A DNA stretch of 64,000 nucleotides from a virus (IMGVR_UViG_3300024520_000049:126499-190498); one strand, 5' to 3'. Positions 3,297-59,049 are shown, counted from the stretch's first letter. A program made the numbers and translations. Notes: a model not told the origin generated them from the letters alone.

Positions 3297-3695
3297 ATGA
3301 CAGCTACAGGAGCGGACATGAGCGAATCTTTGGTAATAAGACCGCAGAGCCCGAATCTCCCGCTGGATAATCCTGCCTTCGTGGAGCTTATGACAGACGC
3401 CATTGTACTCGACCCTGAGTACCTGGACGCCGCGATCATAGGCCACGACACAAACGAAGATGGGGAGATCATCTTTGTATATAGCTATGAGAAGCTCACC
3501 GAAGCTTTCCGCAACGCCGAAGAAGGGTGGAATGACCTTGACGCGATGGAGTGGGTAGACTTCAACACTGTAAGAGCCCTCCCCTACATGGGGGATCGGG
3601 CGCCGATAATTAAATACGAACTCGAAGATGAGGAAAACAAAGATGAACGAGAAGAATTGGAGGTTCCACGGAACCATCGGGGAGGTACTCCCTAA
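3297..3695 (+). CDS. hypothetical phage protein
   Basis: DAAIIG...VYSYEK...AMEWVDFNT...P pattern resembling a common phage hypothetical; exact start uncertain. Confidence 0.65.
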   Translation: MTATGADMSESLVIRPQSPNLPLDNPAFVELMTDAIVLDPEYLDAAIIGHDTNEDGEIIFVYSYEKLTEAFRNAEEGWNDLDAMEWVDFNTVRALPYMGDRAPIIKYELEDEENKDEREELEVPRNHRGGTP

Positions 3696-5160
3696 GCTGA
3701 AAAGTGGCTACCGCGGGGTAGCAGTGCTCATTGACCCAGCCAAGAGCAGAGCGGCAGTTACCGGCAGTGGCTGTATTAGAACAACCCTTCCTGGCCTGTT
3801 GCAGAATATGAAGGGGCTTAAACGGCGGTTGGATCTGAAGCAGATACAGGAACGCTACCCAGAGCTACTCCTGATGGTCACGCACAAAATCGGAAAGAAG
3901 GCTACGTTCCCACGCCGGCACGAAGTCTCCAGCTGGCTGGGTCTGGCGAAAAAGGCCCCGATCGGGAAGATAGCGCTGGGGGAGGACAACTTCCCATCTG
4001 CCCCTGAACCGGCACCCCAGCCCGAGCTGGGCCTACCCCCCTCAGAGCCTGAGGTTGTTGATCCGCCAAACGCGCAAAGGGCCGCGGACCCAGGAGCTCT
4101 CTCCCTCGTCTGCCCCGAAGATATCGCGCAGGGGCGTGTGATCCGCGCTTTCTCTGAAACAGGCTCAACGGGGGACACGTTCTTCGTCGCGCACGATGTC
4201 GCTGATATCCTGGGCTACCGTGACAGCCAGAACTTGGTTCGACTCCTCAAGAATGAGGATACAAGAGATGGTCTACGCCCTCACTTAGTGAGGGTGAAGG
4301 ATCGAGTGATCGAATCCCCTTGCCTGAGCTTCCCCTGTTTAGTTCTAGCCATGTTTCGATCGGACAAGCCTCTGGCCGTCAAATTCCGGGGCTGGGTGGC
4401 GCACGATGTCATGGATCAGATCCGCCGGACGGGTTCTTTTTCGGCCGGTGGTGGGCATGCAGAGGTAGTTGGGTCTGATGAGCGGTGGAGGCTTTTTGAG
4501 GCTTCGGGAGCCCGCCAGGATCGCATGCTTGAGGCGCAGATGGCTCAGATGTCGATGTTGCAGTCACTCGTCAGCACCATGGCCGACATGCAGAAGGGCT
4601 TCGGCCACAAAGCGTCGCAGCCAGAGTCGGCGGGTTACTCCCGGGCACAAACTGCGGTCATCGGGCTGCTTGAGCCCCCTCGCGTCCCGATGAAGGAGTT
4701 CCCTTCGGACGCGTATCTCGTTGCAACCAAGGTGTCTGGGCAGCTGATCACGGACATCGCTCACCCCAATGCGCCACTAGGCACACGCACCACGCTGCTG
4801 GACTTGTTCCCGTTACGGAATGAAGCTGCGGAGATTCTCTTCATCCTTCTAGAGCGGTGGGGTGTGGTTGTTCGACATGAGCAGGGCAGCGATGAGCCGC
4901 ATCTGACGGTTGACGCTACATGGCAGGAGTACGAGATCTTGGTGCCGGCATTCCGGAATACCTATATGAAAGACGGCAGCAAAGTGCTGCATAGCGACGG
5001 TTCTGACGCGTTCCGCTCTATGTTGGTATTCCATCCAGAAGAGGCGGTTAAGCGTCTTCAGCGTCACTTCACAAAGCTGCGGGACTCCAAGCAGCTTGAG
5101 CAGGAACTTGCTGCGGCTGTCTCACTCCGAAGCGCCCGCCGCCAGAAAAAGAAGGCGTAG
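3643..5160 (+). CDS. Bro-N domain (antirepressor-like) protein
   Basis: FFVAHDVADILGY...FRSDKPLAVKFRGWVAHDVMDQIRRTGSF is a Bro-N signature. Confidence 0.8.
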   Translation: MNEKNWRFHGTIGEVLPKLKSGYRGVAVLIDPAKSRAAVTGSGCIRTTLPGLLQNMKGLKRRLDLKQIQERYPELLLMVTHKIGKKATFPRRHEVSSWLGLAKKAPIGKIALGEDNFPSAPEPAPQPELGLPPSEPEVVDPPNAQRAADPGALSLVCPEDIAQGRVIRAFSETGSTGDTFFVAHDVADILGYRDSQNLVRLLKNEDTRDGLRPHLVRVKDRVIESPCLSFPCLVLAMFRSDKPLAVKFRGWVAHDVMDQIRRTGSFSAGGGHAEVVGSDERWRLFEASGARQDRMLEAQMAQMSMLQSLVSTMADMQKGFGHKASQPESAGYSRAQTAVIGLLEPPRVPMKEFPSDAYLVATKVSGQLITDIAHPNAPLGTRTTLLDLFPLRNEAAEILFILLERWGVVVRHEQGSDEPHLTVDATWQEYEILVPAFRNTYMKDGSKVLHSDGSDAFRSMLVFHPEEAVKRLQRHFTKLRDSKQLEQELAAAVSLRSARRQKKKA

Positions 5161-17081: not shown

Positions 17082-18038
17082 ATGAGACCTTGCGAACATT
17101 GCGGTGAGCCACTGGAGGAGGGGAGTCATACTAGCAAGAAGTGTCATAAAGAGTGCGCGCGGGAGAGGAAGAACGACCTTCGGCGTGCTAGACGTAGCGA
17201 CCCAGAGAAGCGGGAGAGGGAGCTCGCCCGACGACGCATCGCCAACCTAACACCCGAGCAGCGGGAGAGGAAGAACGCCAGGCAACGCATCGCCAACATG
17301 ACCCCCGAGCAGCGGGAGAGGAAGAACGCTCATCATCGCGCCCGGCGCGCCAACCTCACCCCAGAGCAGAGGGAGAGCAAGAATGCCCTCACCCGTGTCG
17401 CCAATATGACACCAGAGCAGCGGGAGAGGACCCGTGTCGCCAACCTCACCCCAGAGCAGCTGGAGAAGAAGAGAGCCCACAACCGCGTCGCCAACATGAC
17501 GCCAGAGCAGGTGGAGAAGAGGAACGCCCGCAAACGCATCGCCAACATGCCGCCAGAGCAGCGAGAGAGGAAGAACGCCCGCAAACGCATCGCCAACATG
17601 CCGCCAGAGCAGAGGGAGAGGACGAGGGCACGCGCCCGTGTCGCCAACATGACACCAGAGCAGCTGGAGAAGAAGAGAGCCCGCAACGCCAACCCAACCT
17701 CAGAGCAGCGGGAGAAGAAGAACGCCCGCGCCCGTGTCGCCAACATGACACCAGAGCAGCAGGAGAAGGAGAGAGCTCGTCGTCGGCAGCGCATCGCCAA
17801 CCTCACCCCAGAGCAGCGAGAGAGGAAGAACGCCCTCACCCGCATCGCCAACATGACGCCAGAGCAGGTGGAGAAGAGGAACGCTAGCAAACGCGTCGCC
17901 AACCGAACACCCGAGCAGCGGGAGAAGCAGAGGGCCAGCAACTGCAAATGCCGAGCTAACCGGCAACAAACAAACGAGTACTTTGAGATTCTTGGCCTCA
18001 TTGAGGCTCTTCCAGACCTAATCAACGAAACAATATAA
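17082..18038 (+). CDS. zinc-finger + ANxTPEQ repeat protein 1 (about 14 repeats)
   Basis: MRPCEHCGEPLEEG..CHKEC head, repeat array, constant tail QQTNEYFEILGLIEALPDLINETI. Confidence 0.85.
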   Translation: MRPCEHCGEPLEEGSHTSKKCHKECARERKNDLRRARRSDPEKRERELARRRIANLTPEQRERKNARQRIANMTPEQRERKNAHHRARRANLTPEQRESKNALTRVANMTPEQRERTRVANLTPEQLEKKRAHNRVANMTPEQVEKRNARKRIANMPPEQRERKNARKRIANMPPEQRERTRARARVANMTPEQLEKKRARNANPTSEQREKKNARARVANMTPEQQEKERARRRQRIANLTPEQRERKNALTRIANMTPEQVEKRNASKRVANRTPEQREKQRASNCKCRANRQQTNEYFEILGLIEALPDLINETI

Positions 18039-18047
18039 GGAGGAATC

Positions 18048-18722
18048 ATGAGACCTTGTAAGCATTGCGGCGAGCCTCTGGAAGAGGGGAGCTGCCACCG
18101 GACGAAGTATCATAAAGAGTGCGCGCGAGAGAGGAGGAGGGCCCGCTCCCGCATCGCCAACATGACACCAGAGCAGGTGGAGAAGAAGAGGGTCGGGAAC
18201 CGCATCGCCAACTTCACCCCTGAGCAGCGGGAGAAGATCAACGCCCGCCGCCGGCGCGCCAATCTCACCCCAGAGCAGTGGGAGGCGGAGAATTCCAGGC
18301 AGGCCCGCAACCGCGCCAACATGACCCCAGAGCAGCGGGCGAAGCGGAACGCCTACCAACGCGGACGGCGAGCCAACCGCACACCAGAGCAGCGAGAGGA
18401 GTGGAACGCCTACAAACGCCAACACACCGCCAACCTCACCCCAGAGCAGCGGGAGAGCAAGAACGCCCGCTCCCGCATCGCCAACATGACACCAGAGCAG
18501 GTGGAGAAGCAGAGGGCCGGGAACCGCCGCGCCAATCTCACCCCAGAGCAGTGGGAGAAGCGGTTGGCCCCCCAACGCGTCGCCAACATGACACCAGAGC
18601 AGGTGGCGGAGAGGAGGGCCTGCCAAAGTGCCCGCCAACGCGAACAACAACAAACAAACGAATACTTCGAGATTCTTGGCCTCATTGAGGCCCTTCCAGA
18701 TCTAATCAACGAAACAGTATAA
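18048..18722 (+). CDS. zinc-finger + ANxTPEQ repeat protein 2 (about 9 repeats)
   Basis: Same head and tail; TAAGGAGGAATC site. Confidence 0.85.
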   Translation: MRPCKHCGEPLEEGSCHRTKYHKECARERRRARSRIANMTPEQVEKKRVGNRIANFTPEQREKINARRRRANLTPEQWEAENSRQARNRANMTPEQRAKRNAYQRGRRANRTPEQREEWNAYKRQHTANLTPEQRESKNARSRIANMTPEQVEKQRAGNRRANLTPEQWEKRLAPQRVANMTPEQVAERRACQSARQREQQQTNEYFEILGLIEALPDLINETV

Positions 18723-18731
18723 GGAGGAATC

Positions 18732-19391
18732 ATGAGACCCTGTAAGCATTGCGGCGAGCCTTTGGAGGAGGGGCGTGGCTACCGCGCGCAATATCATAAG
18801 GAGTGTCAGCGCGAGAGGAGGAGCCGCCACCACCGCATCGCCAACCTCACCCCCGAGCAGCGGGAGAAGCGGAACGCTAAACAGCGCATTGCCAACATGA
18901 CCCCAGATCAGGTGGAGAAGCAGAGGGCCTATGATCGCGGACGACGCCAAACCCGCACCCCAGAGCAGGTGGAGAAGGACAGAGACCGCTGCCGCATCGC
19001 CAACATGACCCCAGAGCAGGTGGATAAGCGGAACACCCGCCACCGCGACAACATGACACCAGAGCAGCGGGAGAGGAAGAACGCCCGCTACCGCGTCGCC
19101 AACCTCACCCCAGAGCAGCGGGAGAAGGAGAGAGCCCGCAAACGCATCGCCAACCTCACCCCAGAGCAGCTAGAGAAGAACAGAGCCCGCGCCCGTCGCG
19201 CCAACATGACCCCAGAGCAGGTGGAGAGGGTAAGGGCCCAGGCCCGTCGCGCCAACATGACCCCAGAGCAGGTGGAGAGGAGGAGAGCCTACGCCCAGGA
19301 CCTCCGCCACGAACAGCAACAAACAAACGAGTACTTTGAGATTCTTGGCCTCATTGAGGCCCTTCCAGATCTAATCAACGAAACAGTATAA
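18732..19391 (+). CDS. zinc-finger + ANxTPEQ repeat protein 3 (about 9 repeats)
   Basis: Same head and tail; TAAGGAGGAATC site. Confidence 0.85.
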   Translation: MRPCKHCGEPLEEGRGYRAQYHKECQRERRSRHHRIANLTPEQREKRNAKQRIANMTPDQVEKQRAYDRGRRQTRTPEQVEKDRDRCRIANMTPEQVDKRNTRHRDNMTPEQRERKNARYRVANLTPEQREKERARKRIANLTPEQLEKNRARARRANMTPEQVERVRAQARRANMTPEQVERRRAYAQDLRHEQQQTNEYFEILGLIEALPDLINETV

Positions 19392-19400
19392 GGAGGAATC

Positions 19401-19595
19401 ATGAACCCAGAACAACGCAGAAAGATCAACATGCGGCAGCGCCGCGCTCATCTCATCAATCGCTGCAGCGATAGCGACCTCACCCCAGAACAACAAAAGG
19501 AGAAGAACGACCGTAAACACGCTCACCGCCTCGCCAACATGACCCCGTCGCACCTGGAGAGGATCAGAGCCTGGGATCGCCGCCACGGCCAATAG
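19401..19595 (+). CDS. short degenerate TPEQ-repeat protein
   Basis: MNPEQ, DLTPEQ, ANMTPS; lacks the zinc finger and the tail. Confidence 0.65.
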   Translation: MNPEQRRKINMRQRRAHLINRCSDSDLTPEQQKEKNDRKHAHRLANMTPSHLERIRAWDRRHGQ

Positions 19596-19663: not shown

Positions 19664-20368
19664 ATGACTATCTCCGCAGAAAACAACGAAGAAAACAACG
19701 AACCCAAGCAGCAGAAAATCGAGCTGACAGACGAACAGTGCAAGAAGATCCTCGCCAGGGCCATCGCCCGTATGAAGGCAATGTCAGGCGACTGGAAATC
19801 CATCTCCGAGGACTTTGTTGAGCTCATCGACGGCCGTACTGACGGTAGGGATTACATCCGCAGCCGCCTCCCCGGCCTTTCGCTACATAGCCTAAACCTC
19901 TTTGAGAAGGTAGGTCGAGGAAGCTTGGACCCCCGCCTCGGCCCCAGCGCGATGATCCACAAGCCCCACATGCTGCGGAACCTCTCAATCGCTGACCAGC
20001 TTAAGACTCTTGACGAGAAGCTGTCTCTTGCGATACTCGGCGTCGATCCCGGCAACTTCCGGCTGGTGCGCTGGTCAGATGAGCTTTCGTTAAGCCAACG
20101 CAAGCAGCTGGTAAGCCACTCGGCGCTCCGGACGGTAGCAGAGCAGATCCTGTACCTGGAGGCTCTCCGCACCAACCGCCGCTTGAAGAGCGCAGACAAA
20201 GAGACAGCTGATTATTTCGTGAAGCCTAACGGCGTCGTGGTCTTCACAACGAAGAAAGAGGAGCATGAATGGGAACCAGAGGACCTGCTGCAGCTGGCGA
20301 CTAACGCCGTGAAGCGTGCCAGGGAGTGGGACAACAAGAGGAAGGGCAAAGGTACGTCAAAGCCGTGA
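19664..20368 (+). CDS. hypothetical protein
   Basis: 234-aa ORF after an A-rich leader with AAGGA. Confidence 0.7.
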   Translation: MTISAENNEENNEPKQQKIELTDEQCKKILARAIARMKAMSGDWKSISEDFVELIDGRTDGRDYIRSRLPGLSLHSLNLFEKVGRGSLDPRLGPSAMIHKPHMLRNLSIADQLKTLDEKLSLAILGVDPGNFRLVRWSDELSLSQRKQLVSHSALRTVAEQILYLEALRTNRRLKSADKETADYFVKPNGVVVFTTKKEEHEWEPEDLLQLATNAVKRAREWDNKRKGKGTSKP

Positions 20369-50187: not shown

Positions 50188-51420
50188 ATGGACTGGTTTA
50201 AGCACAAGAAAGCAGAAGTTGAGACGGAGGATATTGGCATAGGTACGAAGATTTGGGCTAATGCCCACGTCTGTAGAGGGGCGAAGATAGGTAGAGATTG
50301 CGTAATCGGAGAAGGTGTTTATGTGGGACCCGGTGTGGTGATCGGCGACCGCTGTAAAATACAAAACCTCTGTTTGATTTATCACGGAGTTACCGTCGGA
50401 GACGATGTGTTTATAGGCCCTAACGTGGTAACGACCAACGACATCCGACCACGGGCCTACGGTAGCTGGGACAGTAGGTTCCGGGAGACTCGTATCGAGG
50501 ACAAGGTAGCGATTGGTGCAAACTGTACGATTCTATGCGGCGTTACACTTGGAGAGGGTAGTGAAATAGGGTGTGGCTCTGTCGTAACTAAGTCAACAAA
50601 GCCTTGGCATTTGTACTTCGGAAAGGCTGCTGAAAATCGAGGAGTGTCTATTGACAGCAGCCTTTCCGAGGATTCTTCACTGAGCTTGTTTCGACCGGTG
50701 TTGCTGCAGATGCAGCCCAGAAATATACCGGAACCTTTAGCCTCAATACGTCAGAACTTAACCATACCTAGGGTATGGTTTAGAGCTTTTGACGAGCCTG
50801 GTGTTCTCGCGGCGATGAACAGTTTTGTACGCGACAGCAATTATTCTCACTATATTATACATGCGGATGACGCCATTGCGTACAAGCTGGCAGTAGACAC
50901 GATTCTCAACCACGCCCACAACTACGATGTGTTCACTGGGTGGTCCAACATGGACATGGCTGGCGAATATCTCAACAAACAATCCAACGTGTGCGTTGAA
51001 CCGCTTACCTTAAGCCGAGATAAAGGGCCAACCCAGTCGGACTACAGTTGGCTTGACGTGGCGGCCGTACGCGATCGTCCGGAGGTGTTTCAGGTGTCCT
51101 TAGCCACTTTTGCACTCTCGTGTTTTCGCCGCGAAGTACTAATAAGGTACCCCCTCCAAGCGTACTCGAACGGGTGCTCATCTGATCACAACATATCGTA
51201 CCGAATACAACATGACGGGTTTTTCACGATTAGTACTCACCGTGATGCGTTCTGTCGGCATCTACGGCAGGGGTACAAACCCCTGAAAAGGGCGTGGTTG
51301 GTGGGTAAGCAGTCTCCCGAAGTACACTACGAGCTGTATCATACTCAGTATGCATACAGTGGTTCAATTGACTACGTAAGCGAACCCTCGTTTAATACTG
51401 CACTAGCGGAGGCCCAGTGA
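50188..51420 (+). CDS. hexapeptide-repeat (LbH) sugar acetyltransferase fused to a GT-A-like domain
   Basis: IGIGTKIWANAHV..AKIGRDCVIG, FIGPNVVTTND, IGANCTILCG; C-terminal YIIHADD. Confidence 0.85.
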   Translation: MDWFKHKKAEVETEDIGIGTKIWANAHVCRGAKIGRDCVIGEGVYVGPGVVIGDRCKIQNLCLIYHGVTVGDDVFIGPNVVTTNDIRPRAYGSWDSRFRETRIEDKVAIGANCTILCGVTLGEGSEIGCGSVVTKSTKPWHLYFGKAAENRGVSIDSSLSEDSSLSLFRPVLLQMQPRNIPEPLASIRQNLTIPRVWFRAFDEPGVLAAMNSFVRDSNYSHYIIHADDAIAYKLAVDTILNHAHNYDVFTGWSNMDMAGEYLNKQSNVCVEPLTLSRDKGPTQSDYSWLDVAAVRDRPEVFQVSLATFALSCFRREVLIRYPLQAYSNGCSSDHNISYRIQHDGFFTISTHRDAFCRHLRQGYKPLKRAWLVGKQSPEVHYELYHTQYAYSGSIDYVSEPSFNTALAEAQ

Positions 51421-52973
51421 ATTCTCTGAGGCTCCTTATTATAACTCCGTTCTGGGAAGCTGGAGAGCTCGTTTATAGCTGCCTTACATCGTTGTGTAGG
51501 CAAGATTTTCAGGACTTCCATTGCGTTGTTATCGACGACGGGTCTATTGAAACTCCTCCAGGACCCGCGGCGTTACAGGAATTTCGCGCTGATAGCAGGT
51601 TTACGTTCGTAACCCGTGAGTCTCGCGTAGGGGCGTTGAAGAACTACGTGGACGCGACTGAGTTAATGTCTGCTAGACTCTCGGACAGTAGCGTAATAAC
51701 GGCGATTCATGGGGATGACACTCTTGTGACAACCTCCTCACTTTCTGAGTTCATGGCGCCGTTCGACGACCCGGATTGTTGGTTTGCGTACAGCCGTTTG
51801 CGTCGTGTGTCTAACGGACAAGAGATACCCGAGCACCCTTACGGGTACGGGGGTGAAAGGGAGTGGAAATCCTTAGACTCTGGGGCCTTTCGGTCTGTCG
51901 GCTGGAGAAGTCAGCCGCTACGAGGGTGGCGGTTTGGGCTGTGGAAGCTTTTGGATCAGGCGAGGTTAAAAAACAGCCGTGGTGAGTATTTTGACACAGG
52001 GTCTGACAAGGCGACCGTCTTCCCTATGATGGAGATGAGTGGCATGAACCGCATACGATTTGTACCACAGGCTACGCTTCTTTATAATGATAAGACAGGG
52101 AAGAACGATTATGTTCTTCGGCGCGAGCAGAACAGGCGAGAGAGCCACGAAATTTCACAATTTCCACGCCACCACTTTGTACCTACGATATACGCTAACG
52201 GTAATATAGCTGAGTGCCTTCACCATAAGATAACTGATACGATGCCGGACGTTTTATTTGTGAGTTACTGCACAGATGAGTACACCAGTTTAGCCGATGA
52301 GCTAGTAGAATCCATCAACGCTCAGGGGCTTAGTTATCATATAGAGAAGTGGCCATCAGCAGGCAGCTGGAAGGCCAACAATGTTCAGAGGTTTGTGTTT
52401 TTAATAGACATGTTCAAAAGGTTTCCGAACCGCTCTGTGGTCTGGATAGACTGCGACGCTCAAGTAGTACAGCTCCCGAGTCTATTTGGAGAATATCACA
52501 GGCTTCAGGTGGACATGGCGGCGCATATGTTTGACCGTGCCAAAGGCCGGCGACCATCTGGAGCGTATGTTGTGGACCGCGGAAATAGCTATTACTGCTA
52601 TCGAACTCATGAGGTTCTTCACGGTACAGTATTTTATGGGGCCCATGGGCTTAGACAGGCGTTTATGGAGGACGTTTTGGCCTGGTTCAGTCGGCACCCA
52701 ACTCTGCATGCGAGGTCTCAGCCATACGTGCAGGACACGCTTTTACGCTGGCAGGGTGAGCTTCGTCGATGGAATTTTCTACCAATGCCGATGTCCTATG
52801 TGCAGATCGACGAGGAGCCTAGACTGGACGGGGAAGCAGTAATACTTCATGGTCTTGCTCATCGTAAGCACAAGGCTACTATAGACAAGGATTCCGCGCC
52901 GTTCTGGAAGTGCCCCGGGTGGACACGAGGTACGGAGATAACGAAGAGCCGCATACGCGAGCTCATAGGATGA
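51417..52973 (+). CDS. GT2 glycosyltransferase fused to a nucleotide-diphospho-sugar transferase domain
   Basis: IITPFW..CLTSL..Q...VIDDGS; second domain VVWIDCDA. Confidence 0.85.
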   Translation: MNSLRLLIITPFWEAGELVYSCLTSLCRQDFQDFHCVVIDDGSIETPPGPAALQEFRADSRFTFVTRESRVGALKNYVDATELMSARLSDSSVITAIHGDDTLVTTSSLSEFMAPFDDPDCWFAYSRLRRVSNGQEIPEHPYGYGGEREWKSLDSGAFRSVGWRSQPLRGWRFGLWKLLDQARLKNSRGEYFDTGSDKATVFPMMEMSGMNRIRFVPQATLLYNDKTGKNDYVLRREQNRRESHEISQFPRHHFVPTIYANGNIAECLHHKITDTMPDVLFVSYCTDEYTSLADELVESINAQGLSYHIEKWPSAGSWKANNVQRFVFLIDMFKRFPNRSVVWIDCDAQVVQLPSLFGEYHRLQVDMAAHMFDRAKGRRPSGAYVVDRGNSYYCYRTHEVLHGTVFYGAHGLRQAFMEDVLAWFSRHPTLHARSQPYVQDTLLRWQGELRRWNFLPMPMSYVQIDEEPRLDGEAVILHGLAHRKHKATIDKDSAPFWKCPGWTRGTEITKSRIRELIG

Positions 52974-54439
52974 CCGAAGACAGTTTCAACGTAGCCTGGA
53001 CCGCGGCAATACGGCGCATAGCCTACATCGTACCCGACAGGGAGGAGAAGTTTATCTTCTTCCCCTCAATGAAGGTTTGCTCAAAGAGCGTCATACAGGG
53101 CGTGCTCAAAGACAGAGTAGTAAACTGGAAGGACGGGCCAGGCGAGTGGCGCCAGACTGTTGCCAAGATGACGCCGACGTCCTTCGCAACTGCCCAGAAG
53201 TTCACCATTGTGCGCAACCCGTACGATCGGGCAGTGTCAGCCTTCTTCCACCTGATCAGACTGAAGGTGGTTCCCGAGCATTACTCGTTTAGCCGCTATT
53301 GCGCTGAGTACCTGGCTACTCTGGGCACGGACGCAAATGAGCACTTCCACCCACAGCTGGACGGCCTGCGGCATCCGGACGGTGGCTTCATCGTAGACCA
53401 CATCCTCAGGTTTGAGAACATCCAGGAAGACTGGGCCAAGTTGGCGCAGGTGCTGGGGGTAGACGAAGAGCTGCCCAGGCTGAACAAGGGCGTACCCCGT
53501 AAACCTTTCCAGGAGTATTACACTGATGAGTCCAAAGAGATCGTCAGCAGGCTGTACAAGGAGGACCTTGAAATCTTCGGGTACGGGTTCGACGAGCAGC
53601 CTGTGCCGTGGAGCAGGAAGATCAAGACAGCCAGGAGTAAGTTTGCCGACGATGTCTCATTGGTCATCAAAGCCTTTGAGCGGCCTGCCGCCACCATGAC
53701 ACTGCTGCAGAGCCTGGAGGATCATGGCTACATCGGCAAGGTCGACATAGTGATAGCGGATGACAGCAAGACGCCTGACCTGGATGAGCGGATGCCAGCA
53801 GCTTGGGTCAAGAACATCAGGTACCTGAAGCTTCCCTACGACACAGGCCTTGCGGAAGGTAGGAACGTAGCAGTTCGGGATGTGCACACCCCCTACATGG
53901 TGCTGCTGGATGATGACTACATCGTGGACCGCCCTGATGTGTTTGAGACTATGTTCGACACTATGTTACGCCACTACAAGCACTTGGACATACTCGGGGC
54001 TGGGCTGCGCGAGGGGAACGACAAGGACCCACGTGACAGGATCTACGCCAACTTTAAGACGACCGAGACCGATCTGATGATCATGTACGGGCACCACCAC
54101 CGTATGATGGACAGGGTATGGATGTGTGATGTAGTCGTCAACTTCTTCCTGGCGAGGACGCAGGTAGTGCGAGATGTGGGCTGGACCCCGGAACTGAAGA
54201 TCGGCGGAGAGCACTACGAGTTCTTCTGGCGCGCCAAGAAGGCCGGCGCCCGCGTAGGGTCGCTGCCCAAGCTCACCATACGCCATGAGAGGAAGCGCCC
54301 GGAAGGTTACTGGGACATGCGCTACGGCCGCGCGGTGAAGATGACAGAGCGGTCGCTGGAGCTGATGGGCTTCAAGACCCTCCGAGTCTATCTGAACCAC
54401 GGCGCGTTCCATGTCGGTGGAGGGTTCAAGGTGCAATGA
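52970..54439 (+). CDS. sulfotransferase (family 2) fused to a GT2 domain
   Basis: KFTIVRNPYDRAVSAF, HFHPQ, RFENIQED, LYKEDLEIFGY; IKAFERP, IADDS, GLAEGRN, LLDDD. Confidence 0.85.
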   Translation: MTEDSFNVAWTAAIRRIAYIVPDREEKFIFFPSMKVCSKSVIQGVLKDRVVNWKDGPGEWRQTVAKMTPTSFATAQKFTIVRNPYDRAVSAFFHLIRLKVVPEHYSFSRYCAEYLATLGTDANEHFHPQLDGLRHPDGGFIVDHILRFENIQEDWAKLAQVLGVDEELPRLNKGVPRKPFQEYYTDESKEIVSRLYKEDLEIFGYGFDEQPVPWSRKIKTARSKFADDVSLVIKAFERPAATMTLLQSLEDHGYIGKVDIVIADDSKTPDLDERMPAAWVKNIRYLKLPYDTGLAEGRNVAVRDVHTPYMVLLDDDYIVDRPDVFETMFDTMLRHYKHLDILGAGLREGNDKDPRDRIYANFKTTETDLMIMYGHHHRMMDRVWMCDVVVNFFLARTQVVRDVGWTPELKIGGEHYEFFWRAKKAGARVGSLPKLTIRHERKRPEGYWDMRYGRAVKMTERSLELMGFKTLRVYLNHGAFHVGGGFKVQ

Positions 54440-55260
54440 GCAGCGACGTCCTTTTTGTTAGCTATCACACCCCGAAGTACGCAGCAGCTGCCAATCGTCT
54501 GTCCCGGTCAATGGATAGATTCGATCTCTCTTACGAGGTAGAGGAGCTCCCACCGATCGGGTGCTGGAAGTCCAACTGCATGCAGAGGTTCGAATACCTG
54601 CTGGAGAAGTTCTGGGCGCACCCAGAGCGTGCAGTCGTATGGCTGGACTCTGACGCGGTGGTCATGCACAACCCCTCACTGTTCCAGAAGTACTTCGACC
54701 ACAGGCATAGCATCGACATGAGCTGCGGGTTCGAGCGCCGAAGCAGGAATCCGTATAAGGTAGACAAGTCAGACTACCACTTCTACAGGACATTGGAGCT
54801 GCAGGGCGGGACCATGTATTACGGGCCATCGGAGCGGAGGGAGGAGTTCATGAGCAGGGTGATCAAGCACTGCTACTCTGATCCCAGCCTGCACATACGC
54901 AGCCAGGCCTTCCTCTTCGACATCTTGCTGGAGTACTGGGCCGATCCCACCCGCAGGTGGAGATTTCGGGAACTCCCGCAGACTTATGTGCACGTGCAGG
55001 ACCCGCAGGATCGGCCAGCGCGCGCACGCCGAGCCAGGCAGGACCGCGCCTACGCCCGCCGCGCCGGCGAGCTAAGGAGTCGTCGCTACCCGGCAGTTAG
55101 GAGAAAGAATCCCCAAGTTGTGGTACATTGCCCAAACGACCAGGAGTTTAGAGATTCGCTGGAGCAGGAGTGCCAACCCTTCTGGAAGAGGCCTGGATGG
55201 GTGAGAGGCACACGTTATACTCAGGAGGAAATTGACAATGGTCATTGTCCTATCGTGTAA
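54436..55260 (+). CDS. nucleotide-diphospho-sugar transferase
   Basis: VVWLDSDA; paralog of the C-terminal half of 51417-52973. Confidence 0.75.
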   Translation: MSSDVLFVSYHTPKYAAAANRLSRSMDRFDLSYEVEELPPIGCWKSNCMQRFEYLLEKFWAHPERAVVWLDSDAVVMHNPSLFQKYFDHRHSIDMSCGFERRSRNPYKVDKSDYHFYRTLELQGGTMYYGPSERREEFMSRVIKHCYSDPSLHIRSQAFLFDILLEYWADPTRRWRFRELPQTYVHVQDPQDRPARARRARQDRAYARRAGELRSRRYPAVRRKNPQVVVHCPNDQEFRDSLEQECQPFWKRPGWVRGTRYTQEEIDNGHCPIV

Positions 55261-56251
55261 GAGCTACCCGACAGTCAGACCAGGAGGCATGCTATTTGTC
55301 TGCCAGGATCGGGCGGAGGAGCTTTCTCGGCAAGGCCATGAGGTGCATGTGCTGCTGCCCGGGGTCAGCGGAAAGGTTTACCACCATAACGGGGTGAACA
55401 TCCACGAGGTCGGGGGAAAGATCAAGACCTACTCCATGGAGTTCGCTTGCGGCTGCCGGCAGGTATGCGAGGAGATATCCCCGGACATCGTGCACCTGGA
55501 TGGCGTGCCTGCCCATTGCGGCAGATGGTGGGAGGATCGTCCAGGAGACGCCAAAGTTTACGCGGCCACACTGCACGGCTTCGGCCCAGGAGGGATGCTC
55601 ACACGCTGGAACATGTTTCGTACGGGCGTGGATCGTCGACAGCCGCAGACACTGGAGATGACCCGCTTTGAGTCGGAGATCAAGATCTTTGAGACGTTTG
55701 ATGTGGTGATCGGGGTCAGCCGCGCAGAGCACTGGTACCTGCAGGACATCTACGGCTTGCCCCGCACCAAGCTGGTGTACAATCCCATACCCTCTTACTT
55801 CTTTGAGCCCAGGGTGGAGCGGAAGGCATTTGCCCCGCTGGTCTGTGCTGACCTGACTTCAGCAGCCTGCCGTAACTTTAAGTCAGCACAACGCGTCACT
55901 GACAGCCTTGATCGTAAGGTCCGCATCATCAAAGGGGTGCCGAGAGTAGATATGCCGAAAGTCTTCGATGGCGCCGCAGCTCTGCTGCTGCCCACCTTCT
56001 ACGCGCAAGGCTACGACCTGACAGTGGCCGAAGCCGAAGCCCGGGGGCTACCGATCATCGCCGCCGCGACGGGTAGCTATCTGATGGAGTCATGGGAGCG
56101 CCCGTGGATACGCACCTTCCGTGCTGGAGACGACCAAGCGTTCCGGGAAGCACTCACCAAAGACCTGCCCGCTCCGCCGCCATCAGGCGCGGCAGACCGC
56201 CACCGCCCTGAGGCGCACGTTAAAAACTGGATGGAGGCCCTCGGCTTATGA
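55238..56251 (+). CDS. GT4 (GT-B) glycosyltransferase
   Basis: PGG...AEELSRQGHEVHV; PT..QGYDLTVAEAEARGLPIIA. Confidence 0.85.
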   Translation: MVIVLSCKSYPTVRPGGMLFVCQDRAEELSRQGHEVHVLLPGVSGKVYHHNGVNIHEVGGKIKTYSMEFACGCRQVCEEISPDIVHLDGVPAHCGRWWEDRPGDAKVYAATLHGFGPGGMLTRWNMFRTGVDRRQPQTLEMTRFESEIKIFETFDVVIGVSRAEHWYLQDIYGLPRTKLVYNPIPSYFFEPRVERKAFAPLVCADLTSAACRNFKSAQRVTDSLDRKVRIIKGVPRVDMPKVFDGAAALLLPTFYAQGYDLTVAEAEARGLPIIAAATGSYLMESWERPWIRTFRAGDDQAFREALTKDLPAPPPSGAADRHRPEAHVKNWMEALGL

Positions 56252-56904
56252 TTCCCAAGAAGATCCACTGGTGCTGGTTTGGCCAAGCCGAGCGCAGCCC
56301 GCTTATGGAGAGATGCATGCAGAGTGTGCGTGATGCACACCCCGACCACGAGATAACCCTCTGGACTGACAAGCACGTGTTCGCACTGCCAGCCAGCCAA
56401 CTCCGAGATTACCTGGAGGCTACCCTGAAGGCTGGCAACTTCGCACACACCGCTAACCTGTTCCGAGCCTATGTGCTGTACACCCATGGCGGCATTTACC
56501 TGGACACAGACGTAGAGATACTGCGACCCCTCGACCCGCTGCTGGGCCAGGAAGCGTTCTTTGGCGCCCAGCACCCGGTGTCCTTGAGCCGCGGTCGGAT
56601 TAACAACGCGGTGATGGGCGCTGTACCCAAGCACCGGAGCATGAAGTACGTTATGGCGCTGACCTGCTACAAGTGTCAACCGACCCAGAAGCCAAATCAG
56701 GGCGGCCCTCACATAATCACAGAGGTGCTGGATGATATGGCAGAAGGCTGCGTCCGCTATTGTGGTGTGTTCAGCAACAAGGAGTTTACGATCTACCCCC
56801 CGGAGTATTTCTACCCGTACCCGTTTGGGGGCACGCTCACCACAGACTGCCTGACGATGGAGACTTACTGTGTCCATCACTGGGCTCACACCTGGAAGAA
56901 GTAG
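56248..56904 (+). CDS. GT32 (OCH1-like, DxD) glycosyltransferase
   Basis: MIPKKIHWCWFG, LYTHGGIYLDTDVE, HHWAHTW. Confidence 0.9.
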   Translation: MIPKKIHWCWFGQAERSPLMERCMQSVRDAHPDHEITLWTDKHVFALPASQLRDYLEATLKAGNFAHTANLFRAYVLYTHGGIYLDTDVEILRPLDPLLGQEAFFGAQHPVSLSRGRINNAVMGAVPKHRSMKYVMALTCYKCQPTQKPNQGGPHIITEVLDDMAEGCVRYCGVFSNKEFTIYPPEYFYPYPFGGTLTTDCLTMETYCVHHWAHTWKK

Positions 56905-56907
56905 CTC

Positions 56908-57729
56908 ATGGTACGTAATCTAGCCTACTTCCTATTTCCGCGCAGCGGCAGCAACTGGCAGGAGGCTGTCGCAGAGCTGCTGCCTCATATGCATAAGTTC
57001 AACGGCCGCAGGATAATAACCGTGGCAGAGGACGATAGCACGGACGAGCTGTCTGAGGTGGTGGAAGCGTTCCAGGGCGTCAGAGCAGAGTTTGCAGCTG
57101 TCGTGAACGACCGCCGGCTGGGTGAGATGCCGCACTTCCTCGACGCGCTTGACCGCATGGATGACGGGCGGGAGGGCATAACACTGTACGCCCACGCCAA
57201 GGGTGTGAGCTATCTGGCTGACGGCAAGTACGTGGAGGCAATTGGAGGGCCAGGCTCCCCAGAGCGGATGCGCAACATATGCAAGTGGCGGCAGCGTATG
57301 CTCACACACCTCACGGACATACCCAAGGTACAGCGGGCATTTGATGAGGGCTTTGATAGCGTGGGCTGCTTCAAGGTCCCCGAGATCATCCGTAAAGATG
57401 AATGGGTGCATTGGCATTACTCCGGCACCTTCTTCTGGTTCCGCAACTCCGCGGTGTTCCATCACCCAGAGTGGCGGGAGATCTACCCCGTGAGGAACGG
57501 CACAGAGTTCTATCTGCAGAGACTGATACCGACAGAGGCGGCGGCTTGTCTATATGTCGACTTCCGCAAGGACGCCCCACTACCAGCGCCACCGCCGTGG
57601 CGGGAGGACTTTGACAATGCCAAGGATCAGAAGTACGCTGATTTCGCCTGGTGGTGGGACGTCTACCACTGGACAGATGAAGACTGGGAAAACTGGGATA
57701 GACTTTATGAAGATCGCTCACCGAAGTAA
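56908..57729 (+). CDS. glycosyltransferase-like protein
   Basis: LYAHAKGVS, WHYSGTFFWFR. Confidence 0.6.
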   Translation: MVRNLAYFLFPRSGSNWQEAVAELLPHMHKFNGRRIITVAEDDSTDELSEVVEAFQGVRAEFAAVVNDRRLGEMPHFLDALDRMDDGREGITLYAHAKGVSYLADGKYVEAIGGPGSPERMRNICKWRQRMLTHLTDIPKVQRAFDEGFDSVGCFKVPEIIRKDEWVHWHYSGTFFWFRNSAVFHHPEWREIYPVRNGTEFYLQRLIPTEAAACLYVDFRKDAPLPAPPPWREDFDNAKDQKYADFAWWWDVYHWTDEDWENWDRLYEDRSPK

Positions 57730-58264
57730 TTACCCGCACTTGCTCGACGCACTCAAGCTGAAGGTTGGGGTGGAGGTAGGAGTGCAGTACGGACTGTTCT
57801 CTGATCACATCCTCCACCACAGCAGCATAGACACGCTGTATAGCGTGGACCCGTGGATGATGTTCAGTCAAGAGGACTATCAGGATATGGGCAATGTCAC
57901 CCAGCGGGAGCAGGATAGCCGCTATCTGTACGCAGTTACTCAGCTGCGCCGGCATCAGTACCGGAGTGTGATCGTGCGGCGCACCTCAGAGGAGGCTGCC
58001 ACGATCTTGGCTGATCACATGATGGATTTCGTGTACATCGATGCCAACCACTCCTATGAGCAGTGCCGGCATGACCTAGAGCTGTGGTGGCCAAAGCTCC
58101 GGCCTGGTGGGCTGTTCTCTGGGCATGATTACGTGGATGGCAAATTCTCTGCGGGCGACTTCGGGGTGAAGAGCGCAGTTGACGAGTTTGTGGGGCGGGA
58201 GCAGCTCAAGCTCTACGTGACGGATGAAGAGTGGCCGACCTGGTACGCTCTAAAGGGCGGATGA
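57707..58264 (+). CDS. class I SAM methyltransferase (Methyltransf_24-like)
   Basis: GVEVGVQYG, VDPW, DFVYIDANHSYE, PGGLFSGHDY. Confidence 0.9.
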   Translation: MKIAHRSNYPHLLDALKLKVGVEVGVQYGLFSDHILHHSSIDTLYSVDPWMMFSQEDYQDMGNVTQREQDSRYLYAVTQLRRHQYRSVIVRRTSEEAATILADHMMDFVYIDANHSYEQCRHDLELWWPKLRPGGLFSGHDYVDGKFSAGDFGVKSAVDEFVGREQLKLYVTDEEWPTWYALKGG

Positions 58265-59049
58265 CCGTGGCAAGCAGCAACACCCTCCTGTGTCTGGTCT
58301 GTGGTTTCGCGCATGGCGGCACCACCATGCTTGGGGAGCTCCTCCGCCAGCACCCGCGCGTGGATGGGCGCTTCGAAGCAGGCCTGCTCCTGGGGGAACG
58401 ACCGAAGGACTTCACAGGTGTGCAGTGCTTCCCCAGGTTCGTCCGGCGCTGTTGGGGTGTTGATGATGGGGGCATGCGCCGACTCACCAGCTGCCAGACG
58501 TTCCCGGAGATGTACGATACTCTGCGGGAGGTGAGCAATCTGGAGGATAAGACAGTCCAGATCTACGACAAAGCGCCAGTTTACATGTACGAGCTCGCAA
58601 AGATAATGGCGAAGACCGATGTGCCTGTTGTGGTAACAGTAAAGGATCCCAGGGCTATTCTGCTCAGCAACTTACGGCGACACGCCACGGCGCCGCTGGA
58701 GAAGACGGCGCTATCCCTGGATCCCTGGACTCGTGGCTATGAGCATGCCCAGCGCACCTACGGGGATCGCATCCTCCTGGTCAGGAACGAGCACCTCTGC
58801 CTGGAGCCGCTCAAGTATGGGAAGCAGATCTATGACTTCCTGGGGCTGGAGTGGAAGGACGAGTATGTTGAGCTGCGCTCTGTTTACCCACTGCACGACA
58901 ACATCTACGGTAATGAGGACGGGGGAGGCAGTTCTCGGGGCATTGCGTCTGACCGGCTGACGGAGTGGAAGGAGTTGCTACCCGCTGAAGATGTGGAGAT
59001 TTTCCAGGGTTTGCTGCAGGACAGCAGACGGTGGTGCTGGAATCCGTAA
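58261..59049 (+). CDS. sulfotransferase (family 3-like)
   Basis: CGFAHGGTTML..LL..HP, DKAP, KDPRA. Confidence 0.8.
   Translation: MTVASSNTLLCLVCGFAHGGTTMLGELLRQHPRVDGRFEAGLLLGERPKDFTGVQCFPRFVRRCWGVDDGGMRRLTSCQTFPEMYDTLREVSNLEDKTVQIYDKAPVYMYELAKIMAKTDVPVVVTVKDPRAILLSNLRRHATAPLEKTALSLDPWTRGYEHAQRTYGDRILLVRNEHLCLEPLKYGKQIYDFLGLEWKDEYVELRSVYPLHDNIYGNEDGGGSSRGIASDRLTEWKELLPAEDVEIFQGLLQDSRRWCWNP

Follow-up and report, generated by a model that had tools for sequence, protein, structure and literature searches.

What would a phage gain from three adjacent genes whose proteins begin and end almost alike and differ in the basic repeats between? The question is raised by genes A, B and C, which lie in tandem in a 64,000-nucleotide stretch (the window) that covers positions 126,499–190,498 of one virus record of 190,498 bp, IMGVR_UViG_3300024520_000049. 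Each encodes a zinc-finger-like head, an array of short helical repeats and a shared C-terminal tail; they are followed by D, likely a decayed copy, and by E, a member of an unnamed phage family. Comparison across phages suggests, at a probability of roughly 0.5, that A–C are interchangeable DNA-targeting adaptors that recruit E, which would occupy the targeted site and alter transcription.

Constant ends and a variable repeat body

The features in question, all on the + strand, are as follows.

17082–18038, +: gene A, 318 aa; 14 repeat units between a CxxC-x14-HxxC head with basic linker and the shared tail
17235–17945, +: repeat array of A, with a period of 51–57 nt and two shortened units
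17964–18051, +: first copy of the 88-bp repeat; A tail, stop, ribosome-binding site and B start
18048–18722, +: gene B, 224 aa; head, 9 units and tail
18150–18629, +: repeat array of B
18648–18735, +: second copy of the 88-bp repeat; B tail and junction to C
18732–19391, +: gene C, 219 aa; head, 9 units and tail
18834–19298, +: repeat array of C
19317–19404, +: third copy of the 88-bp repeat; C tail and junction to D
19401–19595, +: gene D, 64 aa; two clear units and a partial, degenerate third, without head or tail
19664–20368, +: gene E, 234 aa; the next gene after D and the proposed partner of the tail

An earlier note on this DNA had described three genes with a common finger and a near-identical tail, and this anatomy is established: the head is present in all three, head, repeats and tail together account for the whole of each protein, and the 88-bp repeat is identical at 83 of its 88 positions across all three copies. 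The counts of 14, 9 and 9 units given in that note also stood, while its unit length of about 18 residues gave way to one of mostly 17, since the 29 spacings between units comprise 20 of 17 aa, six of 19 aa and one each of 13, 15 and 16 aa. Twenty-eight of the 29 are odd, and the two shortened units fall one helical turn below the common lengths (17 − 4 and 19 − 4). The fourth, degenerate copy that it mentioned is D, where only two to three units are found; a DNA remnant of the tail 3' of D was not significant (score 37 against a shuffle mean of 36), and no further copy of the gene was found in the 190,498-bp genome. B, C and D each start 9 nt past the preceding stop, at an identical AAGGAGG ribosome-binding junction.

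Among Logan contigs from runs X1–X3, one piece links the A tail, the B head and the first unit (17978–18170) and another spans the C head to unit 8 (18706–19220), and a contig from run X5 joins the B tail to the C head. As the A–B and B–C junctions are thus bridged by contigs from several runs, the three separate genes are real, with the provisos that none of the pieces listed covers the whole array, that the inner unit order of A is without independent bridging and that X1 and X2 may be the source of the record. Joints are also seen in isolated contigs of low depth (X4, 17899 to 19049; X6, 19168 to 18125; X1/X2, 19117 to 17159); these may represent variants, or repeats of other organisms, and were left unused. 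In X1 and X2, a 228-nt contig of low depth resembles the start of A at about 85% (window 17159–17314), suggesting that these samples also contain a related phage with a separate allele.

The feature is real and under selection. Across A–C, the heads differ at a proportion of synonymous sites (pS) of 0.44–0.70 and of non-synonymous sites (pN) of 0.02–0.06, and the tails at 0.12–0.29 and 0–0.035, respectively. The unit core, R-[IVR]-A-N-[ML]-T-P-E-Q, is nearly fixed over the 32 units (Q in 32; N, P and E in 31; A and T in 30; R in 29), and all three reading frames are intact throughout. In an alignment of all repeats, pS is 0.25 against a pN of 0.04 in the core columns, and pN (0.42) exceeds pS (0.30) in the variable columns, these values being pooled over units regardless of their relatedness and indicative only. 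The nearest DNA neighbour of a unit often lies in another gene (e.g. A5–C6, B7–C2, A12–B6), and this sharing of units, together with the selection pattern, supports the proposal of modular basic repeat proteins. The proteins carry a net charge of +18 to +39, and A, C and B are the three most Arg/Lys-rich among 184 plus-strand open reading frames (ORFs) of at least 100 aa.

Disordered repeats, which would count against modular binding, were not predicted. The model of C (predicted local distance difference test, pLDDT, 83.7; predicted template modelling score, pTM, 0.30) has nine helices of 14–16 residues, one per unit, joined by 3-residue linkers at pLDDT 74–94, and a long last helix that takes in the tail. 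Foldseek returned no match for it, another fold search gave nothing beyond long-helix matches at Z of about 5, and the Atlas look-alikes were all below 0.9; a phmmer search of B against the PDB returned a designed protein only.

Gene E as candidate partner of the tail

The earlier suggestion that the tail is a shared docking motif gains a candidate partner in E. The E model, predicted from 64 sequences (pLDDT 88, pTM 0.67), comprises a long helix and a helix-turn-helix (HTH)-like part (21–87), an alpha/beta middle and a three-strand-plus-helix end (181–233). Thirty-nine relatives were found at an E-value of at most 0.001 among 1.84 billion representatives, and no curated family matched either E or the tail in Pfam, PHROGs and NCBIfam scans. 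There was likewise no match to E in annotated phages or plasmids, none for its model among Foldseek PDB searches and none in a PDB sequence search; the single BFVD match was an uncharacterised phiM12 protein (E-value 2.4e-4).

Weak fold matches to E are led by DNA-binding HTH domains, which its N-terminal part resembles, namely StbA (Z 5.0, root-mean-square deviation (rmsd) 4.9 over 65), DeoR (Z 4.8, rmsd 2.4 over 50) and KorB (Z 4.2, rmsd 2.2 over 42). P1 ParB residues 150–326 gave Z 4.0 with an rmsd of 14.8 over 123. For the ParB/KorB order of an HTH domain and then a C-terminal dimerisation domain, the matches to E are thus at Z 4.0–5.0 only. Residues 177–233 of E resemble COMM domains (Z 4.3–4.9; rmsd 1.9 over 53 at Z 4.8), the rest of E being without a COMMD match; the COMMD proteins, as the available part of one source describes them, join a helical HN domain to a three-strand-and-helix COMM domain (PMC13392464). 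None of the 39 family members matched ParB_N at an E-value of 0.1, and the model begins with a long helix. No sigma factor family was found for seven E proteins in NCBIfam, and Pfam Sigma70_r1_1 matched 1 of the 39 members only (E-value 0.014). DUF3102 (PF11300) occurs on 13% of the members of one Atlas look-alike cluster of E (score 0.94) and matches none of the 39 relatives, and a profile comparison of E with two neighbours labelled DUF3102-like by eye gave a probability of 1.2%. By eye, one relative (P0054, 342 aa) has E fused to a basic C-terminal extension and another (P0051, 228 aa) carries an N-terminal CxxC-CxxC extension. For P0043 and P0044, two of the closest relatives, the longest contig listed is 8452 bp in each case, and the two may be paralogues that share a contig.

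To place E in context, motif-seeded scans yielded 39 viral and 50 metagenome loci, 89 in total, which fall into 36 clusters when grouped at 55% identity. No loci were retrieved for direct relatives of B, E or the tail, nor for the closest group of E, and a degenerate E pattern search gave two matches, neither of them E. The linkage of E to a partner recurs across the set: E usually adjoins a variable gene, upstream or downstream and often with a 4-nt overlap, encoding a basic helical-repeat protein of another repeat type, a finger-bearing protein or a protein of 250–330 residues without a known family. A gene with at least 25% Arg/Lys adjoins E in 15 of 36 clusters (2 of them doubtful), compared with 3 of 172 controls. 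The contexts of the cassette differ by phage and include terminase, portal, ligase, beta clamp, RecT, ribonucleotide reductase and RNA polymerase genes. Two loci provide a precedent for the three-adaptor array: one has two basic partner genes upstream of a single E (L032:2440–2932, by eye) and the other has a basic partner gene on each side (L087:1–1065).

A tail motif of 14 columns, in which a central aromatic pair is followed by small and hydrophobic residues, was derived from the C-terminal 45 residues of these neighbours with the window excluded. With each of 35 clusters held out in turn, at least 6, 8 and 10 bits were reached in 17, 11 and 8 clusters, where 3.4 (10 of 172), 1.4 and 0.3 would be expected from 172 control ORFs. 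In the tail of A–C, Tyr-Phe takes the place of the aromatic pair; the alignment scores 6.8 bits and shares ranks 3–6 of 275 plus-strand ORFs. A hidden Markov model (HMM) of 32 foreign tails, which were chosen by motif score and by eye and aligned with the window row present and then removed, ranked C, B and A 1st, 2nd and 4th of 625 ORF ends in the genome. It also placed P0081 1st of 42 (10.0 bits, next 3.7); this further repeat relative, with two fingers and about three units, carries an almost identical tail. By these scores the tail match is modest in bits but falls on the genes beside E. A first motif search, since replaced by the multi-seed one, had mixed registers (15 of 35 clusters at 5 bits versus 7.3 expected) and did not place A–C in the top 15 of 625. 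Complex prediction with two copies of E (15–232) and the C tail gave a median of 0.26 (runs of 0.36, 0.00 and 0.26) against a mark of 0.32, with controls not folded, and is neutral as to docking.

Exchange of partner bodies and CRISPR-linked loci

Judged from their alignments, relatives with near-identical E replace the partner body and keep the tail. Among 18 pairs compared, three (L008/L009, L012/L013 and L040/L041) have E proteins 98–100% identical, bodies 20–30% identical and last 35 residues 89–91% identical; the other pairs are intermediate, and L058/L059 departs from the pattern. In 5 of 8 pairs aligned as DNA, homology breaks off where the partner begins and returns 90–235 nt ahead of its stop; of the other three, two differ by repeat number and one is cut by a contig end. 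In L012/L013 the partner lies downstream of E, so that the kept tail is the end far from E.

In three further settings the neighbour of E is a Cas12-like protein of 415–445 residues, with E lying between its gene and a CRISPR array (L033, with its relative L034; L045; L046). These phage or provirus loci of the Cas12/TnpB-like, E-family and CRISPR type are as follows.

L033:718–3450: Cas12/TnpB-like gene, E-family gene and CRISPR array
L045:1509–3820: Cas12/TnpB-like gene, E-family gene and CRISPR array
L046:1521–4003: Cas12/TnpB-like gene, E-family gene and CRISPR array

The arrays hold 8–9 (L033/L034), 3 (L045) and 7 (L046) repeats of 35–36 nt with spacers of 29–41 nt; no cas1 or cas2 was found among the neighbours scanned at the three loci, and, in the three records searched, the spacers of the L045 and L046 arrays found no match. 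The three Cas12-like proteins are related (34% and 31% identity to that of L045). The L045 protein has weak matches, under the cut-off, to TnpB (E-value 0.0044) and Cas12f2 (E-value 0.0095), those of L033 and L046 have none, and a search with the Cas12-like query retrieved its own three loci only. The proteins are apparently nuclease-dead: set by eye against the RuvC motifs, they have another residue at the first acidic position and do not show the third motif. In L033 a separate 58-aa gene after E consists of little besides a basic stretch and a tail (6.5 bits held out).

A type V-U24 Cas12 with a noncanonical RuvC-I has been noted whose neighbour is an HTH gene with no assigned function (PMC10691335). 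The three loci may belong to the same group, in which case the novelty of the CRISPR part would be lower; the available passages of that source contain no mention of non-CRISPR partners or of a shared tail.

The repeat unit compared with known DNA-binding repeats

The earlier note likened the arrays to those of TALE or PPR proteins. The likeness holds for variable residues within a constant repeat scaffold between fixed ends and does not extend to the fold: TALE and PPR repeats are helical hairpins of 33–35 residues that form a solenoid and read one base per repeat, whereas the unit of A–C is a single helix of about 14 residues, of variable length (units of 13–19 residues). The STPR family, with one helix per repeat along the major groove, is the closer model.

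Pfam STPRs (PF21107, cut-off 27 bits) matched A at 36.1, B at 40.8 and C at 29 bits, summed over repeats; single stretches exceeded the cut-off in B only, and D had no match. A nine-sequence repeat profile gave six PDB matches, among them weak ones to Bombyx FMBP-1 (5d23, E-value 0.31) and Helraiser transposase residues 11–92 (E-value 1.4). According to the part of the STPR–DNA structural work available, the 23-residue repeat is a two-residue linker and a helix over 4 bp of the major groove, recognition is mostly by indirect readout of AT-rich DNA, and STPRs are strictly 23 residues long, in 3–7 copies, in animals and a moss (PMC4856987). The arrays of A–C share with FMBP-1 the tandem basic repeats and the short linker followed by one helix, the latter as predicted in the model of C. 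When the core Thr is set on Thr2 (T0), Q3 falls on Gln5, position +4 on Arg6 (16 of 32), −5 on Arg20 (29 of 32) and −4 on Leu21 (Ile/Val in 21 of 32), and by the numbering of that source the variable stretch would fall at the base-contact positions. Unlike STPRs, the units have 13–19 residues and 9–14 copies, a Met, Leu or Arg in place of Glu1, a phage origin, and a finger-like head and a tail around them. A strict 23-residue repeat is ruled out by the spacings (13–19, with 17 in 20 of 29), and among the STPR residues Glu1 is found in 0 of 32 units, Thr at position 2 in 30, and Arg and Lys at the ninth position in 8 and 11. Since they depart from STPRs in length and at Glu1 and Arg9, the units may work like STPRs without being filed as members. 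Pfam matches to RPAP1_N and DUF3106 were set aside, as they hit the short TPEQ core.

A further tie is to free-standing phage endonucleases, which share the repeat unit and its preferred lengths. A sequence search with C found 40 relatives, and of the 38 scanned six matched endonuclease VII (PF02945), one GIY-YIG (PF01541) and two, weakly, HNH. Repeat spacings counted in 41 repeat-bearing proteins were of 17 (37), 19 (31), 16 (25) and 23 (7) residues. By virtue of its fusion to nuclease domains, the unit likely serves as a DNA-binding arm of phage nucleases. In contrast to those proteins, A–D are without a nuclease domain, A–E having no HNH, endonuclease VII, GIY-YIG or LAGLIDADG match in Pfam or PHROGs, and in A–C the tail takes the nuclease position; none of the 40 relatives reaches 6 bits for the tail. 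Among P0001–P0038, many phage-type proteins carry this arm of 16-, 17-, 19- and 23-residue repeats, without a Pfam model of its own, joined to endonuclease VII, GIY-YIG-like or HNH-like domains, several more GIY-YIG-like or HNH-like ends being seen by eye.

Proposed mechanism and alternatives

The mechanism that would join these observations is drawn entirely from comparative genomics. Each basic repeat array would wrap helix after helix along DNA and pick a long site, of some 30–50 bp for 9–14 units at the 4 bp per helix of STPRs, or fewer if the shorter helices cover less. E, a predicted HTH-like and likely oligomeric protein, would be bound by the shared C-terminal helix and so brought to the site, where its presence would alter, and most likely block, transcription. 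Three adaptors would give one E three specificities, which would be renewed whenever units, or the 88-bp repeats, recombine with one another, and in the three CRISPR loci the targeting role would pass to the Cas12-like protein and its array. The steps differ in strength. That the arrays read DNA is probable, and that the tail binds E is rather likely; that the outcome is repression or occlusion of the target by E, as opposed to activation, cleavage or another output, is put forward tentatively, at somewhat under even odds. The widest form of the idea, a widespread plug-and-play system of phages in which one effector is steered by any module with a docking helix (an STPR-like array open to reshuffling, an unrelated globular protein, or a nuclease-dead Cas12 with its CRISPR guides) and the three arrays form a readable helix-by-helix DNA code with about half the residues of a TALE repeat, is rather unlikely. 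Rapid body exchange and the CRISPR form suggest that the targets are under conflict, in the host or in a competing phage.

Two known systems offer partial parallels, each judged from the accessible part of its source. In dCas12f–sigmaE, a nuclease-inactive targeting module likewise recruits a transcription-related protein encoded next to it; E differs in matching no sigma factor family, in having mostly protein-only partners and in being phage-borne (PMC12259090). In KorA–KorB of plasmid RK2, a site-specific protein latches a ParB-type HTH protein and promoters are silenced; unlike KorB, E is without the ParB N-terminal CTPase domain, and its partners are exchanged wholesale (PMC11790492).

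Several observations weigh against recruitment of E by DNA-reading adaptors. The E locus set stems from two motif-seeded subgroups, and the loci of the closest relatives of E (P0042–P0044) were not retrieved. About half of the partners are globular, with no known family (0 Pfam matches among 31 neighbours) and no indication of DNA binding. Eighteen of the 35 held-out clusters score below 6 bits for the tail motif, the 6.8 bits of the window tail rank 12th of 625 over both strands with HMM E-values of 0.22–0.95, and D, without a tail, sits between C and E. Service as a recombination arm could partly account for the retained tail. In the Cas12-like proteins of L045 and L046 the C-terminal extension scores 3.5 and −3.7, respectively, so that a tail on Cas12 is seen by eye only. 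The STPR match may be driven by composition, the C model has a pTM of 0.30 and no fold match, and all E fold matches lie at Z < 8, possibly a common arrangement according to the tool.

A different origin for the same parts would be a two-part selfish element, in which the adaptors are DNA-binding arms of homing endonucleases that have lost the nuclease and E supplies or recruits the cutting or recombination that spreads the cassette. The presence of the 17/19-residue unit on endonuclease VII, GIY-YIG and HNH-like proteins, the many unrelated genomic contexts of the E cassette, and Cas12-like partners that seem, by eye, to be without the RuvC acidic residues, as would fit a nuclease acting in trans, all point this way. 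However, metal-dependent nucleases typically show a cluster of conserved Asp, Glu and His, and the most conserved residues of E are mainly Gln, Arg and Gly (Q112, Q161, R156, Q148, G84 and E81), with no nuclease family or fold matched; nor would homing into one site need three different adaptors, and the selfish element is considered improbable. Much the same standing is given to a scheme in which the tail does bind E and the polybasic bodies are low-specificity tethers or decoys for DNA, RNA or an acidic host protein, as part of an inhibitor/antidote or DNA-coating module in place of a site-specific regulator. The high net charge, the largely indirect readout by STPRs of AT-rich DNA reported in the accessible part of PMC4856987, and the 58-aa L033 gene with little beyond a basic stretch and tail would suit such tethers, whereas the excess of pN over pS in the variable columns, the exchange of whole bodies between near-identical phages and the sequence targeting implied by the CRISPR-linked form would not.

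The remaining possibility takes up the neutral slippage that the earlier note raised against itself and adds decay: A–C would be tandem copies, recently made, of a remnant without a nuclease, and would owe their shared end to recent copying or gene conversion. The degeneracy of D, the 76–96% likeness of units to their nearest neighbour over 45 nt and the extension of the 88-bp repeat across the ribosome-binding junction fit this account. It is nevertheless largely contradicted already, and is held to be very improbable, given heads that differ at 44–70% of synonymous and 2–6% of non-synonymous sites, three frames intact over 32 units with 28 of 29 spacings odd and short units of 17 − 4 and 19 − 4, the almost unchanged tail of P0081 on a differently built two-finger body, and the recurrence of similar tails beside E in unrelated phages.

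Genome setting

The record, from a large marine phage, encodes a terminase and a baseplate wedge protein as well as two RNA polymerase beta-like proteins, a DNA polymerase and helicases. At least half of the sequence words of the window are present in three seawater metagenome runs, two of which may be its source, and no RNA dataset is among the runs listed as holding them. Promoter and terminator counts were at chance level. The earlier note had placed the genes just upstream of a DUF6745 locus; no DUF6745 match was found among 102 neighbours of E homologues scanned, and the position upstream of DUF6745 here thus looks incidental.

Elsewhere in the window, 3628–5160 encodes a 510-aa protein with an anti-repressor Ant-like domain (residues 181–273), whose C-terminus has the top plus-strand ungapped tail-motif score (9.2 bits) and an HMM rank of only 8th. 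A block at 50188–59049 contains, by eye, acyltransferase-, glycosyltransferase-, methyltransferase- and sulfotransferase-looking genes. In another genome, a 393-aa ORF (G000:C1:90646–91827; L005:10646–11824) looks tubulin/FtsZ-like by eye and had no PHROG match.

Significance

Literature searches, over a literature that lacks most subscription papers, returned no description of a pairing between E and tail-bearing partners; the docking idea gains both a candidate partner and a wider system not found described in the literature searched. If the adaptor mechanism is true, these phages would show how, in nature, a single effector can trade protein-coded targeting parts for RNA-guided ones, and a function would be available for the class of HTH proteins found beside some atypical Cas12s. 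STPR-like groove-tracking repeats would be extended from animals to phages, in a shorter and variable form, and this phage form would be a candidate compact programmable DNA-binding scaffold that could be tested as such.

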